A stretch of 64,000 nucleotides of DNA from Nannocystis bainbridge (GCF_028368995.1 NZ_JAQNDL010000003.1:352001-416000); one strand, 5' to 3'. Counted from the first letter of the stretch, positions 17,450 to 64,000 are shown. Numbers and translations are program-made. Notes: generated from the sequence alone by a model not told the origin.

Positions 17450-18743
17450 CCCGATCAAAGTCCCGCCGCTCGGCGAGTCCATCACCGAGGCCATCGTCTC
17501 GTCCTGGCGCGTCAAGGCCGGTGACCGCGTCACCGTCGACCAGCCCCTCGTCGAGCTCGAGACCGACAAGATCACCGTCGAGGTCCCCTCGCCCGCCGCC
17601 GGCGTCATCACCGAGCTCTCCGCTCAGCAGGGCGCCAAGGTCAACGTCGGCGACACCATCGGCGTCATCGGCGACGCCGGCGCCGAACCTGCCCCTTCGG
17701 ACAAGTCGCAAACGCCAGGTGCTTCAGGACAGGACTCTTCGGACAGGTCCCAACAGTCAGCCAAGGCCGAGGCCAAGGCCGAGACCAAGCCCGCGGCGCA
17801 AGCAAAGGCCGGCGGCGAGCCGATGCCGGCCGCCCGCGCCGAGGCCGGCCGCACCGGCGTCGAGCTCGAGGGCGTCGAGGGCACCGGCCGCGGCGGCCGC
17901 GTGCTGAAGGAGGACGTCCAGCGCGCCGCCCAGGCCAAGGACACCAAGCAGCCGGCGCCCGCCGCCGAGGCCAAGCCCGCCGCGAGCAAGCCGGCCGCCG
18001 AGGCCAAGCCGGCCGCCCCGTCTGCCCCGCGCCCGCAGGCCAGCGGCCGCGAGGAGATCGTCGCCATGACCCCGCTGCGTCGGCGCGTCGCCGAGCGGCT
18101 GGTCCAGGCCCAGCAGACCGCCGCGATCCTGACGACCTTCAACGAGGTCGACATGTCGGCCGTGTACCGCCTGCGCAACAGCTACAAGCAGGGGTTCGTC
18201 GACAAGCACGGGGCCAAGCTCGGCTTCATGTCGTTCTTCGTCAAGGCGGCGGTCTCGGCCCTCAAGACCTACCCGGCGGTCAACGCCGAGGTCCGCGGCG
18301 AAGACATCGTCTACAAGCGCTACTACGACGTCGGCGTGGCCGTCGGCGGCGGCAAGGGCCTGGTCGTGCCGGTGGTCCGCGGCGCCGACCAGCTCGGCTT
18401 CGCCGACATCGAGAAAGAGATCGCCCGCCTGGCCGTGCGCGCCCGCGAGAACAAGCTGACGCTCGACGAGCTCAGCGGCGGCACCTTCACCATCTCCAAC
18501 GGCGGCATCTACGGCTCGATGCTGTCGACCCCGATCCTGAACCCGCCGCAGACCGGCATCCTCGGCCTCCACAACGTCGTCGAGCGCCCGGTCGCCGTCA
18601 ACGGCCAGGTCGAGATCCGCCCGATCATGTACCTCGCGCTGTCCTACGACCACCGCCTGGTCGACGGCCGCGAGGCGGTGCAGTTCCTGGTCCACGTCAA
18701 GGAGCGCATCGAGGCGCCCGAGCGGCTGCTGCTCGACGTCTGA
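17442..18743 (+). CDS. sucB: Dihydrolipoamide succinyltransferase E2
   Basis: Lipoyl [15 protein letters not shown]3-binding [32 protein letters not shown]; overlaps the sucA stop. Confidence 0.97.
17685..17764. repeat. 14-bp-period array (6 units) within the sucB linker
   Basis: Cores CCTG 17688, CAAG 17702, CAGG 17716, 17730, 17744, CAGC 17758; encodes [25 protein letters not shown]. Confidence 0.8.
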
Positions 18744-18749
18744 CCTTTC

Positions 18750-18801
18750 AGGCATGTCCTCTCCGACAGGTCCGTAACACCATGTCCCAAGAGACCTTCG
18801 A
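18750..18801. repeat. 14-bp-period array filling the sucB-lpdA gap and covering the lpdA ATG
   Basis: CATG 18753, CAGG 18767, CATG 18781 (start codon at 18782), CCTT 18795. Confidence 0.8.
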
Positions 18802-61341: not shown

Positions 61342-62460
61342 TCACCCGGGGATGTCGGCCGCGAACTCGAGCACCACTGTCTCCGCCGGCATCGCCGACG
61401 ACGGGGCCACCAACGATCCGATCGTCCACCCCTGCCCGCCGCTGGCCCGCAGGGCCTCGACCAGCGCCGCAGCCCGCTCAGCGGGCACGGTGAGCAGCAG
61501 CCCGCCGCTGGTCTGGGCGTCGGCGGCGAGGATGGTCCGCAGCGGTTCTTCGCGGCCCTCGACGACCAGGTTCGGCCGCACGAACGCCAGGTTGGCCTTC
61601 GAGCCGCCCGGGACGCGTCCGGCCGCCGCGTGGCCGAGCGCCCCGGGCAACGCGGGCAACGCCGCCATGTCGAGGCGCGCCGCCAGCTGCGACCCGCGGA
61701 GGATGTTGCGCAAGTGCCCGAGCAGGCCGAAGCCGGTCACGTCGGTACAAGCGGTCACGCCGAAGCCGCGCGCGATCGCCAGCGCCGGGCCGTTCAGCGT
61801 CGTCATGCTGGCGATCGCCGCGGCCATTTCGCCCGCCTCCGCCTGCCCCTGCTTGATCGCCTGGGCGATGAAGCCGGTCCCCAGCGCCTTGGTCAGCACC
61901 AGCGCCTGTCCTTCGCGCCCTGTCCGATTCGACAGGACCTCCGAGACAGCCACCTCGCCCGTCACGCTGAGCCCGAATTTGAGCTCCCCGTCGCGGACGG
62001 TATGGCCGCCGACCACCGCCACGCCGGCGCGGCTGCAGGCCCGCGCCGCGCCGCGCAGGATCGCCTGCAGCACCGACAGCGGCAGCTTGTCGTCGGGGAA
62101 GCCGACGATGTTGAGGGCGAACAGCGGGCGCCCGCCCATCGCGTAGACGTCCGACAGCGCGTTGCAGGCGGCGATCTCGCCGAACGTCTCGGGGTCGTCG
62201 ACCAGCGGCGCGATGACGTCGACGGTCAGCACGGTCGCCCGCGTCGGGTCGTCGCCGACGCGCACGACCGCCGCGTCGTCGGCGAACTCCGTGCCGACGA
62301 TGACCCGCGCGTCACCCCGTTCTTCGGGCGGGGGCATGCCCTCCAGGACCTGAACCAGGTCACCCAGCCGCAGCTTGGCGGCTCAACCTCCGCCGCGGGC
62401 AAACTCGGTCAAGCGGAGCGGTCGGGGGGCATCGCGCGGATCGTCGGGCTCGCTGCTCAT
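61342..62460 (-). CDS. selD: Selenide, water dikinase; selenoprotein with in-frame UGA (Sec26)
   Basis: [17 protein letters not shown] continues in frame into [51 protein letters not shown] at 62383-62385. Confidence 0.93.
61902..61953. repeat. 14-bp-period array (4 units) inside selD
   Basis: CCTG 61905, CCTG 61919, CAGG 61933, CAGC 61947. Confidence 0.7.
62347..62382 (-). promoter_or_regulatory. Putative bacterial SECIS element of selD
   Basis: After UGA: GCCGC-caagct-GCGGC, then GACCTG-GTT-CAGGTC hairpin with its loop G 28 nt downstream of the UGA. Confidence 0.65.
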
Positions 62461-62505
62461 GCACGAGCAGTGTATCGCAGACCCCGGGCCGCTACACTGC
62501 GGCGC

Positions 62506-64000
62506 ATGGCCAAGCCCGTGCGTGACCTGGTCCTCGGGACCGCCGGCCACATCGACCACGGCAAGACCGCCCTGGTCCGCGCCCTCACCGGCGTCGACAC
62601 CGATCGCCTGCCCGAGGAGAAGCGCCGCGGGATCACCATCGACCTCGGCTTCGCCGCCTGGCAGCTCGGCCCCGGCCTGGTCGCCAGCATCGTCGACGTG
62701 CCCGGTCACGAGGCCTTCGTCCGCACCATGGTCGCGGGCGCCGGCGGGGTCGACGCCGTGCTCCTGGTCGTCTCGGCCGAGGAGGGCGTGATGCCGCAGA
62801 CGCGCGAGCATCTGCTCGTCTGCCGCCTCCTCGGCATCACCCACGGCGTGGTCGCCCTCAGCAAGGTCGATCGCCTGAACGGCGACGACGAGGCCCTCGC
62901 GCTGGCTGAAGCCGACGTGCGCGCCGCCCTCGAGGAGCTGGCCCCGGGCCTCGCCGCCGCCCCGATCCTGCCCTGTTCGGCGCACACCGGCGCCGGCATC
63001 TCCGAGCTCTCCGCCGCCGTCCGTCGCGTCGCCGCGGCGCTGCCCGCCCGCCCCACGCGTGACCGCCCGATCCTCCCGATCGATCGCTGCTTCGTCCTCA
63101 AGGGCCACGGCACCGTCGTCACCGGCACCTTGCTCTCGGGCCAGCTCGAGATCGCCGCCGATCCCTACCTCACCCTCGTCCCTGGCGAGCAGCGCCCGGT
63201 CCGCCCGCTGCGGGCCCGCGCCCTGCATGTTCGCGGGGCCGCGGCCACGCGCGTGCCGGCGGGCGCGCGCGCGGCGGTCAACCTCGGCGGGGTCGCGGTC
63301 GCCGAGTTGGCCCGCGGCGACGTGCTCACCCGCGGTCACCGGGTCGTCGCCGCGGCGGCCGTCCACGTCCTCCTCGAGCACCTGCCGCACGACACCCGCA
63401 CCTGGCGCAGCGGCACCAGCGTCCAGGTCTGCGCCGGCACCGCGCACACCACCGGTCGCCTCGATCCCCTGGGTCCGCGGGACGGCGACGAAGATGCCCC
63501 GAAGACCATGTCCATTCCGCCAGGTGCTTCGGCGCTGGTGCGGATCCGCCTCGACGCTCCTCTGCCCGCCTGGCACGGCCAGCGGCTGGTCCTCCGCAGC
63601 CAGGGCGGCGACCTCGTCCACGGCCATACGTGCGGCGGCGGCGTCGTCGTCGACCCCGGGCCTCGCCCGGGCCGGGGCCAGCGGAGCCGCTGGCTGCGGG
63701 TCGCTCGCGCCCTCGCGGGATCGGACCTGCGCGCCCGCGTGACCGCGCTGCTGGCCGATGCCGGCGCCCTCGCCATCTCGCGCGACGAGCTCGAGCTGCG
63801 GGCCGGTACGCACGATCTCGATGCTGTCCTTTCAGACATGTGCCAGAGCACCGACGCCGTGCGGCTCGGCGACAGCCGACACGTCGCCGCCGCCGTGCTG
63901 CCCGAGCTGGCCGCCGCTGCCGTCGCCGTCGCCGTGCGGTTCCAGGCCGCCCACCCCGACCGCCCCGGTCTGTCGCGCGCCGCCTTGCTCGGCGGCCTGC
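62506..64000 (+). CDS. selB: Selenocysteine-specific elongation factor (partial, runs off the window)
   Basis: Read directly, absent from the ORF track: [80 protein letters not shown]. Confidence 0.95.

Follow-up and report, generated by a model that had tools for sequence, protein, structure and literature searches.

Results

Arrays in and between the genes of the window

The window, as we call the whole stretch of 64,000 nucleotides analysed here, comes from a high-GC soil bacterium and contains sucA, sucB, selD, selB, a TPR gene and an S46 peptidase gene, names that Pfam confirms. Its genes and the spaces between them carry repeats of a 14-bp unit, composed of the 10-bp palindrome GGACATGTCC and 4 variable bases (Table 1). 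Lattice points spaced 14 bp apart were scored by m, the number of matches to GGACATGTCC; arrays were seeded at m ≥ 7 and extended at m ≥ 6. Genes were called across the genome with a crude codon-usage script, which gave 8013 genes and 83% coding.

Table 1. Sites of the 14-bp unit in the window, with scores m where given.
Location	Coordinates	Strand	Units	m	Remarks
ORF 160-2406	2176..2213	minus	3, strong	8,9,8	residues 65-77, read as SLETCLQGHDPSAMSP
ORF 2648-4117	3514..3551	minus	3	7,6,8	
Intergenic	10809..10918		5, and 2 perfect units		convergent genes; begins at stop codon
sucA	16357..16380		1 strong, 1 weak	9,6	between E1_dh and Transket_pyr domains
sucB	17685..17750		5, in frame	7,8,6,7,9	residues 82-103
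Intergenic	18750..18787		3		fills gap from sucB stop to next start (18782)
Intergenic	21883..21948		5		convergent genes; begins 5 bp past stop; RNA fold -34.7 kcal/mol, z -3.9
Intergenic	29862..29941		6		convergent genes; RNA fold -50.1 kcal/mol, z -7.5
TPR gene (30220-30975)	30839..30867	minus	one 9/10 unit and in-register half-sites		near N-terminus; below array threshold
Intergenic	37672..37751		6		convergent genes; fold z -4.2
Intergenic	41532..41611		6		convergent genes; fold z -6.2
Intergenic, three arrays	48002..48319		5, 4 and 3		one convergent region; mostly unalignable among congeners
ORF 52353-53708	52641..52664		2	8,9	Pro/Ala-rich N-terminal part, reads EPVPEDMA; coding solely if the long GTG-started ORF is used
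ORF 52353-53708, C-terminal tail	53548..53627		6 lattice points, in frame	7,7,8,7,4,10	
Intergenic, two arrays	54790..55018		5 each		directly past VWA gene stop
selD	61902..61939	minus	3, weak	7,7,7 (7/10 each)	residues ~133-146
selB	63490..63527		3, weak	7,8,6	residues 329-341, variable loop of beta-barrel domain

An earlier note on this DNA had claimed arrays in several of these genes. The sucB array is real and has five units; the sixth is not credible. It occupies the linker that joins the lipoyl domain (4-76) to the E3-binding domain (128-160); all five congeners have it at this position, and as RNA it folds worse than its shuffles (z +1.98). The six units claimed for a 'DUF4381' gene exist as six lattice points in the tail of ORF 52353-53708, which is flanked by a DUF58 gene and the VWA gene, but one of them scores 4. 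This tail array is kept in five congeners, and because the tail varies in length in the outgroups we make no indel call for it. At the second site in the same ORF, two of the three proposed units are present. The supposed 'NACHT' gene (ORF 160-2406) has three strong units; since Pfam at E ≤ 0.5 finds no family for either ORF, both labels are unconfirmed. The TPR site lies below the array threshold (Table 1). The sucA array is almost invariant across five congeners. The array in ORF 2648-4117 is weaker in G003 (4,5,4) and unalignable in two congeners.

The selD array, found where the AIRS and AIRS_C domains meet, has the four units described before when these are counted as half-sites in register; as full units it has three weak ones, and in most congeners one unit alone reaches at least 7. 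Part of its match is supplied by a conserved Gly-Gln dipeptide that the outgroups also have. In selB the three units claimed are there and weak. The coding DNA of the window holds 6 arrays of at least 3 units, against ~0.6 expected from control periods. The sucB and C-terminal-tail arrays are far above chance and the selD and selB arrays are weak, the odds that a lone 3-unit array of this kind is noise being roughly 1 in 4 to 5.

A genus-wide family with its home at gene 3' ends

The genome contains 2194 arrays of at least 3 units, and the family makes up 1.1% of its 11 Mb. GGACATGTCC occurs 956 times, about 100-fold over the ~10 copies expected from base composition, and TGTCC-N4-GGACA 1987 times. 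The period is fixed to the base: GGACA recurs at a spacing of 14 bp 639 times and at neighbouring spacings 5-22 times, and 45% of 4116 strong sites have a neighbour of m ≥ 7 at +14 (background 0.5%). GGACATGTCC is its own reverse complement, with equal forward and reverse counts. The 10-bp core alone is conserved; spacers and flanks vary from array to array, and no pair of arrays derives from one master copy. A search of the 64-kb window against Rfam at the gathering threshold gave no match, and searches of the literature brought up no description of the family.

The home of the family is the 3' ends of genes, chiefly between convergent genes. Arrays of at least 4 units occur in 495 of 1430 convergent intergenic regions (34.6%), 383 of 4365 co-directional ones and 35 of 1457 divergent ones (2.4%). 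In co-directional regions the array lies a median of 15 bp past the upstream stop. An array lies within 100 nt after the stop of 1568 of the 8013 genes and within 100 nt before the start of 367. For arrays of at least 3 units, density is ~8 times higher between genes (1129 in 1.85 Mb) than within them (~670 in 9.20 Mb coding). Intergenic arrays fold strongly (median z -4.4; z < -2 in 85% of 200), in-gene arrays less so (median -1.6; 42% of 113); for random coding segments the figures are 0.04 and 8.8%. The flank consensus of the arrays has no T-run. The core score of arrays is 7.70 between genes and 7.19 within them.

A double unit was found in 78 stretches among the genomes of 185,579 species: 64 belong to Nannocystis records, one Nannocystaceae MAG accounts for 9 and one Myxococcales MAG for 2, and the other 3 are single matches elsewhere. 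A triple in-phase GACATG is present in all 8 genomes searched in the window's genus (its own included), in 1 of 7 of another genus and, with 2 matches, in one genome of a third; it is absent from the remaining 51 genomes searched.

Coding sequence holds more arrays than its codons explain

Inside gene calls, period 14 gives 430, 159, 51, 15 and 19 arrays of 3, 4, 5, 6 and at least 7 units. Seven control periods, none a multiple of 3, give 71-130 arrays of 3 units, 6-19 of 4 and 0-1 of at least 5. In five synonymous-codon shuffles, 289-336 arrays of at least 3 units appeared, against 674 in the real genes, which bears out the claim that the lattice is written into coding sequence. Motif pairs in genes do not occur at the shuffled frequency either (2613, against 1779-1943 in the shuffles). 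In 113 cases an in-frame array of at least 4 units lies deep within a gene, with coding sequence to either side. The patches in coding sequence are true members of the genus-wide tandem family.

As the earlier note also held, these patches run against codon bias, which in this host is to our knowledge among the strongest in bacteria. A/T-ending codons make up 29.0% of the 5134 codons in 329 robust in-gene arrays, 3.5% of the 30 flanking codons and 4.7% of the rest of the same genes; at spacer third positions A/T stands at 19-40%. In all six congeners, arrays L078, L080 and L088 have 7-11 A/T-ending codons per 26-29 codons; the outgroups have 0-4 at these sites, with one exception. The 329 arrays encode a periodic peptide of 14 residues (GHVPEDMSxxTGPE-like), for which Pfam has no family. 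In the phase that reads TGT as Cys, the central T is replaced by G in 50% of in-gene units, against 8% of intergenic ones. Among 36 arrays sampled against Pfam domains, 20 lie between or outside domains and 13 inside; those at domain junctions include sucB, selD, sucA, L085, L101, L107 and L108.

Recoding and insertion

In alignments with outgroups, six of nine arrays (selD, selB, L078, L080, L088 and L106) show no length change, two (sucB and L112) carry extra residues, placed in linkers or loops that vary, and the ninth is indeterminate, which supports recoding without indel as the commoner mode among these nine aligned arrays. Orthologue alignment had been proposed as a check, and for selD it agrees with the recoding suggested there: against 22 orthologues from beyond the genus there is no length change, and their SNRGARAGQ corresponds to SNRTGREGQ within it. 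The selB loop is as long as in outgroups G036 and G031; in G013 an 18-residue insertion of array-like DNA occupies that same loop. At 42 residues, the sucB linker is longer than that of three orthologues from beyond the genus (21-27). The six arrays of unchanged length sit on conserved residues, such as GHVP in the L078 family. The idea that sizes of 3 and 6 units preserve the frame finds no support: six-unit arrays are relatively rarer in genes (15, against 50 of five and 6 of seven units) than between them (181, against 192 and 68).

All 29 alignable in-gene arrays occur in every congener examined; they are older than the split of the compared species, whose third-position divergence is 12-17%. 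Because none of the 29 is lineage-specific, there is no sign of a writing process still running. Nor do in-gene arrays occupy the gaps left by intergenic ones: the nearest intergenic array is a median of 3.5 kb away from them, against 4.4 kb from random coding positions (p=0.07), and array spacing is clustered (CV 1.2-1.7).

Retention of the core

Among congeners, core-spelling A/T at third positions had changed at 16 of 90 sites, against 166 of 507 for other third-position A/T (p=0.004), a signal drawn from 86-90 sites in 27-30 of ~330 arrays of related genomes, in which sites within one array are not independent. An independent second sample alone gave 3/28 against 22/72 (p=0.043). Standardised by codon, core A/T changes numbered 15 where 25.5 were expected (z=-2.57), and a bootstrap over arrays placed the core at 0.099-0.250 and the background at 0.264-0.366. 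Spacer third-position A/T in the same arrays had changed at 14 of 38 sites (core against spacer, p=0.024), so it is not for their rarity that codons are kept. Counting all bases, consensus-matching core third positions had changed at 37 of 264 sites and spacers at 20 of 69 (p=0.006). At off-consensus core positions in genes, 16 substitutions led to the consensus base and 15 to some other base, where one third toward the consensus was expected (p=0.027); intergenic substitutions also lean to the consensus (6 vs 2 of 20 sites, p=0.02).

Core third-position G/C changed no differently from the background (0.121 against 0.136). Over all codon positions, core (103/956) and spacer (32/238) do not differ in rate (p=0.25), and codon positions 1 and 2 change about twice as fast in arrays (0.077 and 0.071) as in the background (0.048 and 0.032). 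Context-dependent mutation rates could contribute to the retention signal. The slower loss of core-spelling A/T supports a DNA-level force on the motif, be it selection or a biased repair or conversion drive.

Discussion

Our overall reading, to which we give a probability of roughly 0.55, is that of a genus-wide family that has overwritten genes in place and whose core is under a weak DNA-level force. Neighbouring intergenic units would pair, forming hairpins whose stem has 10 bp and whose loop has 4 bases. From their location and folding we infer that the intergenic arrays may act as REP-like or terminator-like elements at transcript ends, and possibly also as sites to which a sequence-specific protein binds; being symmetric, the hairpins could serve both genes of a convergent pair. 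Several hundred copies stand in frame within genes, in loops, linkers and tails where the protein is permissive, and they arose ahead of the split of the compared species. Most of them may have overwritten 40-80 bp of coding sequence at unchanged length, at places where the peptide already resembled the array translation, and a minority would have added residues. Selection on protein and mRNA may then have trimmed the in-gene arrays, replacing the Cys codon and weakening the hairpins; should the function lie in the hairpin, most in-gene copies no longer have it. The weak force would act on the 10-bp core and not the spacer, the rare A/T codons that spell the core being lost about half as fast as other A/T-ending codons. 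Of this reading, the analysis itself establishes that the arrays exist and exceed chance, where they lie, how old they are, that indels are lacking in most aligned cases and that codons are retained; the role of the intergenic arrays, the choice between selection and drive and the way in which genes were overwritten are inferred.

A bolder version, which we put forward tentatively and at well under even odds, takes the lattice as an actively maintained, genus-specific DNA signal. It would be bound, as an array of sites, by a putative sequence-specific factor, or else be targeted by a motif-directed system of uptake, repair or conversion, and the maintaining force would be strong enough to overwrite genes where they stand. 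A second, non-protein code, keeping rare codons in spite of the codon bias, would in that case run through hundreds of proteins.

The family resembles REP/BIME elements in its short palindromic units, present in hundreds to thousands at gene 3' ends and in convergent regions (here 1129 intergenic arrays of at least 3 units), and in its hairpins. REPs stabilise upstream mRNA and bind proteins. They are ~35 bp long with a conserved 5' tetranucleotide and variable spacing, whereas the unit here is 14 bp, in phase-locked tandem, with several hundred in-frame copies within genes. A profile search for the RAYT/Y1 transposase (PF01797) gave no match in the window's genome (90% complete), with positive controls in 6 of 14 reference genomes; the family, which sits behind a fifth of the genes, lacks the transposase that explains classical REPs. 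SPRITE elements and intrinsic terminators share the strong G+C-rich hairpins directly past stop codons; here, however, there is no T-run in the flank consensus, one stem sequence is fixed genome-wide, and a terminator role is putative.

Within genes, the arrays can be compared with Rickettsia palindromic elements (RPEs), described in PMC10969869 as palindromic repeats that keep the frame of the unrelated genes they lie in and yield a conserved peptide, and with intragenic MITEs (ERIC, BOX). The 329 arrays here are likewise in frame in unrelated ORFs and translated as a periodic peptide. An RPE is a discrete element of ~100-150 bp that is conserved over its full length and adds residues, while the family described here has a 14-bp unit with free spacers and a mixed record of length, with nothing added in six of nine alignments, extra residues in two and one indeterminate. 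Uptake sequences, as PMC2817400 reports, build up at coding positions of low conservation and make the peptides they encode twice as frequent. The USS/DUS of Pasteurellaceae and Neisseria resemble our motif as lineage-specific short motifs, ~100-fold over-represented, in permissive coding positions where they shift peptide frequencies. They differ in being dispersed single oriented words; the present motif is self-complementary, in fixed 14-bp tandem and 8 times denser between genes. Inverted USS/DUS pairs serve as terminators behind genes. We know of no uptake bias in the window's genus.

The earlier note had ascribed the lattice to selection on the DNA motif, citing HIP1 and KOPS beside uptake sequences. 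The retention data sustain a DNA-level force, but these two analogies are misleading. HIP1 of cyanobacteria is a highly iterated palindrome also found in genes against codon expectation, as is the motif here; it is dispersed singly and about equally frequent in and between genes, whereas this motif forms arrays, concentrated at gene 3' ends with an ~8-fold intergenic excess. KOPS, like Chi, requires strand skew, and a self-complementary core cannot be skewed or carry orientation; we rejected that comparison.

In-gene arrays could instead be neutral relics. An intergenic repeat, selfish or structural, would have left old copies in tolerant protein segments, as Rickettsia palindromic elements did, and these would now decay, with rare codons persisting for want of time. 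Their age (29 of 29 alignable arrays predate a split marked by merely 12-17% third-position divergence), lower core scores and weaker hairpins than between genes, the faster change at codon positions 1 and 2, which fits permissive sites, the equal overall rates of core and spacer (p=0.25) and the position of 20 of 36 sampled arrays between or outside domains all agree with this. We nevertheless find it doubtful, because core A/T third positions are better retained, with the second sample, codon standardisation and bootstrap in agreement, because in-gene substitutions lean to the consensus, and because six of nine aligned arrays are not insertions and lie on conserved residues. An unlikely alternative is molecular drive, in which motif-preferring uptake followed by recombination, as with uptake sequences, or motif-directed mismatch repair or conversion, moves near-matches to the motif wherever the protein tolerates it and no function in the gene is needed. 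The consensus-ward substitutions in genes and between them, recoding in place where the ancestral peptide already resembled the array translation, and the patchy distribution of the triple GACATG across genera would suit it, as would the gathering of uptake sequences in poorly conserved coding positions noted in PMC2817400. Against it, the motif is no single oriented word but a palindrome, set in tandem at a locked phase and separated by spacers rich in A/T, and not one of 29 arrays is a lineage-specific gain.

The remaining explanations look to the protein. In one, the arrays are kept for translation pacing: rare codons clustered at domain boundaries, or mild structure in the mRNA there, would delay the ribosome so that the protein can fold as it is made. 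This would match the codon usage of the arrays (29% A/T-ending, against 3-4% elsewhere) and the many arrays at domain junctions. We regard this as very improbable, since the spacers of these arrays do not retain their A/T third positions, 13 of the 36 sampled arrays fall within domains and the same motif dominates intergenic DNA. Least credible of all is chance, or a DNA period that is the by-product of a selected peptide repeat or composition. About half of the arrays survive synonymous shuffles, since the encoded peptide already accounts for much of the motif, and in selD the conserved Gly-Gln contributes to the match. A 14-bp period, however, takes an array through all three frames, control periods yield 4 to 15 times fewer arrays, intergenic density is 8 times the genic, and the array peptide has no Pfam family. 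This explanation is contradicted for the class and possible for single 3-unit cases such as selD.

The in-gene copies offer a natural test of the extent to which a DNA-level signal can overlie protein coding. If the force is selection, some factor reads the palindrome; if it is drive, this would be a second case, beside uptake sequences, of a motif reshaping a proteome. The arrays are likely to trouble gene calling as well as alignment near the ends of genes, and in many enzymes they indicate where insertions are tolerated.

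Results

In the 11.05-Mb genome of N. bainbridge (G+C 71-72%), our own codon-usage script called 8013 genes, which make up 83% of the genome; the window genes of relevance were checked against Pfam. All positions were scored by m, the number of bases matching the 10-bp palindromic core GGACATGTCC, and chained at 14 bp with seeds of m at least 7, extensions of m at least 6 and one weak point permitted within a chain. Every array count uses this rule. The core itself is present in 956 copies, compared to ~10 expected from base composition, and TGTCC-N4-GGACA occurs 1987 times. Two GGACA motifs are spaced by exactly 14 bp 639 times, and by 13 or 15 bp 5-22 times. 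Among 4116 sites with m of at least 9, 45% have m of at least 7 at +14, a score with a genome-wide frequency of 0.5%. Conservation is highest at the central CATG of the core; the four bases of the spacer vary freely and tend to be A/T-rich. The 2194 arrays of three or more units occupy 1.09% of the genome; they share the core alone, and no two derive as copies from one master.

Array density is ~8-fold greater between genes than within them. Arrays of four or more units were found in 495 of 1430 convergent, 383 of 4365 co-directional and 35 of 1457 divergent intergenic regions. In co-directional regions the array lies a median of 15 bp past the upstream stop and 163 bp ahead of the next start. 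An array follows the stop within 100 nt in 1568 of the 8013 genes and precedes the start within 100 nt in 367. Each adjacent unit pair is predicted to form a 10-bp stem with a 4-base loop. Relative to shuffles, intergenic arrays have a median folding z of -4.4 (z < -2 in 85% of 200), and examples in the window have predicted folds of -35 to -50 kcal/mol. We infer that intergenic arrays may act at transcript ends. Deviations compensated in the neighbouring unit are in modest excess between genes (19.7% vs 15-17% in controls) and show no excess within genes (13.9% vs 13.1-13.4%); the excess is too weak to separate structure from sequence recognition. Regular spacing or gap-filling of arrays along the chromosome was not seen. 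An Rfam search of the 64-kb window gave no match, and a search of the genome for Y1/RAYT transposases found none.

Intergenic arrays vary among relatives. Two of the 12 in the window align fully across all five congeners. In the window arrays, spacers change ~3-fold faster than other non-coding DNA (9/19 vs 0.154), and cores stay near consensus while whole units are gained or lost, which looks like concerted evolution or rapid turnover. Two metagenome contigs with 90-95% similarity both break at the array located at 21883 between genes, which only fits this variability.

Within gene calls, 430 arrays of three units, 159 of four, 51 of five, 15 of six and 19 of seven or more were found at period 14; seven control periods gave 71-130 of three units, 6-19 of four and 0-1 of five or more in all. 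Five synonymous-codon shuffles, which keep protein and codon usage, contained 289-336 arrays of three or more units, compared to 674 in the real sequence. Half of the arrays outlast shuffling, since the motif is inherent in the encoded peptide. The earlier note had proposed selection on the DNA motif within genes, and motif pairs do exceed the codon-shuffled frequency (2613 vs 1779-1943). Its suggestion that, in linkers, inserted three- and six-unit arrays would preserve the reading frame is not supported, as unit counts show no sign of a multiple-of-three filter. Lone sites with m of at least 7 number 36,948 in the real coding sequence, below the 47,109-47,660 of the shuffles; avoidance of such sites or a codon-pair effect could explain this. 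The coding DNA of the window contains six arrays of three or more units, with ~0.6 expected from the control periods. The labels DUF4381 and NACHT that two window genes had been given are unconfirmed by Pfam.

Lattice units and other tandem repeats in the window
Feature	Position	Observation
sucB array	17685-17750	5 units, linker between lipoyl and E3-binding domains
ORF 52353-53708 array		6 lattice points in the C-terminal tail; 2 units in the Pro/Ala-rich N-terminal part
ORF 160-2406 array		3 strong units
sucA units		one strong and one weak, between two domains
TPR gene		one strong unit and flanking half-sites
selD array		3 weak units
selB array		3 weak units
Intergenic, upstream of S46 peptidase gene	4447-4766	two copies of an 88-bp direct repeat (95% matches) and 2.7 of a 37-bp repeat, each including lattice units; several 2-unit arrays
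Intergenic, between co-directional genes	56196-56368	54-bp tandem repeat, 3.1 copies, 92% matches
ORF 52353-53708, Pro/Ala-rich N-terminal part	52397-52634	G+C-rich tandem repeats, periods 6-66
ORF 49409-50005, minus strand	49481-49772	G+C-rich tandem repeats, periods 9, 21, 36, 42
Gene 56407-57222	56806-57084	purine-rich coding repeat, periods 15, 30, 42; would encode a Lys/Glu/Asp-rich low-complexity segment

We defined robust in-gene arrays as those with three or more units, at least 150 nt from either gene end and with coding-like in-frame flanks. There are 329, of which 113 have four or more units. As had been claimed, these patches run against codon bias: 29.0% of their codons end in A/T, compared to 3.5% for flanking codons and 4.7% over the remainder of these genes, and 29% of array codons have a relative usage below 0.1, compared to 3-4% elsewhere. 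Since three 14-bp units span 42 bp, translation of the arrays yields a repeat of 14 residues, GHVPEDMSxxTGPE or a variant of it. Where the phase would turn the core into the Cys codon TGT, the central T is replaced by G, giving Gly, in 50% of in-gene units; the same replacement is found in 8% of units between genes. In the Met phase the T is retained in 81%. Third positions in the spacers are 19-40% A/T although the core imposes no such need, and the whole in-gene tract therefore has the DNA make-up of an intergenic array. The rare codons of the patches come from this make-up. Folding is weaker than between genes, with a median z of -1.6 (z < -2 in 42% of the 113), compared to 0.04 (8.8%) for random coding segments, and the sucB array folds less well than its own shuffles. 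Four of the sampled four-unit arrays (L082, L090, L093 and L097) look chance-like by eye, with few rare codons.

Forty robust arrays of four or more units were drawn at random and placed relative to Pfam matches. Twenty lie between or outside matched domains, 13 inside a matched stretch and three are ambiguous; the other four proteins have no Pfam family. Pfam span versus model length proved unreliable as a proxy for insertion, as L088 and L106 seemed longer yet have no array indel. Lengths were also compared with orthologues from genera without the lattice. The selD array has no indel relative to 22 of 22 orthologues outside the genus, which supports the proposal that this gene was recoded rather than inserted into. 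The selB length equals that of two outgroups. No indel was found in a periplasmic binding protein (L078), an oxidoreductase (L080), an M50B peptidase (L088) or a class II tRNA-synthetase-like protein (L106), all of which retain residues shared with outgroups, such as GHVP. In L078, L080 and L088, 7-11 of 26-29 codons nevertheless end in A/T in all six congeners, compared to 0-4 in the outgroups, with one exception. Two arrays come with extra residues: the sucB linker has 42 residues compared to 21-27, and L112 carries 16-27 additional residues in a variable loop. The tally is thus six arrays with unchanged protein length and two with extra residues; for the ninth, the tail of ORF 52353-53708, an indel is not callable. 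L111 has no orthologue in five outgroups.

Syntenic DNA was compared in five congeners for the window and 11 further genes, and in four congeners for ~600 kb more, with G010 included for part only of this second sample. Third-position identities gave the tree (G003,(window,(G001,(G010,(G007,G005))))). In-gene arrays are present in every congener examined (29 of 29 alignable), with a mean unit score of 7.1 for the window's genome and 6.7-6.9 for its congeners. Because arrays picked in the window's genome would bias rates, only changes within the sister clade were counted, and only where the window and G003 carry the same base. The direct window-to-G003 contrast between core and spacer (13.9% vs 25.4%) was set aside because the choice of arrays in the window's genome biases it.

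Third-position changes in the sister clade, 30 arrays pooled
Site class	Changed	Rate
Background	3429/24439	0.140
Core matching consensus	37/264	0.140
Core off consensus	17/52	0.327
Spacer	20/69	0.290
Background, A/T only	166/507	0.327
Core matching consensus, A/T only	16/90	0.178
Spacer, A/T only	14/38	0.368
Background, G/C only	3263/23932	0.136
Core matching consensus, G/C only	21/174	0.121

At third positions, the core changes less than the spacer (p=0.006). For A/T third positions, it changes less than the background (pooled, p=0.004; second sample alone, 3/28 vs 22/72, p=0.043) and less than the spacer (p=0.024). Recomputation with a codon-specific background gave 15 observed changes compared to 25.5 expected (z=-2.57), and a bootstrap over 27 arrays gave 0.099-0.250 compared to 0.264-0.366 for the background. 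At off-consensus core sites, 16 changes created the consensus base and 15 gave one of the two others (p=0.027). With all codon positions taken into account, there is no difference between core and spacer (p=0.25). The rates at first and second positions were 0.077 for the core and 0.071 for spacers, against a background of 0.048 and 0.032. Significance was reached with the 30 arrays only. A contrast of 84% vs 44% identity is misleading, as conditioning on the ancestral state at the window's 17 sites gives p=0.19.

Discussion

The in-gene patches belong to the lattice: they are old, are translated and lie at permissive places. Rare codons within them that form part of the palindrome disappear more slowly than the remaining rare codons, among them those of the spacers a few bases away. 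The 14-bp period crosses all three frames, beyond any protein-level cause, which argues for a force on the core at the DNA (or RNA) level. This is the best-supported reading, to which we give a probability of roughly 0.55. The force may be either selection or a drive, which these data do not separate. A hairpin function inside genes is disfavoured by the weakened folds there, and a spacing or architectural role by the lack of gap-filling. The overwriting of genes without indels could have proceeded by stepwise substitution at sites resembling the motif, under the force on the core, or by a short conversion-like event.

Among known systems, REP/BIME elements are closest in workings. However, the lattice falls outside that class: the genome search gave no RAYT, and the units differ and repeat at a fixed period. 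Rickettsia palindromic elements likewise have in-frame copies, whereas most lattice copies add no residues. Uptake sequences similarly build up in place at permissive coding positions, but the lattice motif is palindromic and tandem. The suggested analogy to KOPS, and likewise one to Chi, is ruled out by the symmetry of the motif. We found no description of this repeat in the literature on the core sequence or on myxobacterial and Nannocystis repeats, or in passages of genome and repeat papers. The full-text matches listed for the core are animal, plant or plant-virus studies, mostly on p53 response elements, and none of them concerns bacteria.

Of 11 genomes of the genus, 9 carry the perfect double unit, compared to 0 of 30 from other genera. 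In a broader search with one genome per species (185,579 species), it occurs in 78 stretches: 64 in records titled Nannocystis, nine in one Nannocystaceae MAG, two in one Myxococcales MAG and three as single matches in unrelated taxa. The looser triple pattern (in-phase GACATG) is found in all eight genomes of the genus searched. The window's genome has 191 matches, whereas four congeners with genomes of about the same size or larger have 47-83, which suggests a recent expansion or better maintenance of arrays in its lineage. Outside the genus the distribution is patchy. One of seven genomes of another genus has 57 matches, with A/T-richer spacers, and none occurs in its six sampled congeners; a third genus has two matches, both in one genome (the two carriers are G071 and G057). 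Another 51 genomes of the family have no match.

Two observations concern orthologues outside the genus. The selD orthologue L044 (from G052) has a single in-frame TGA, as would be expected of a selenocysteine-containing SelD; the selD of the window has none. In G013, from a lattice-poor genus, selB (L065) carries an 18-residue insertion, PPGHVSFNMPLRPDQAHG, near base 2484. Its DNA contains two lattice-like units, and it lies in the same loop as the weak selB array of the window.
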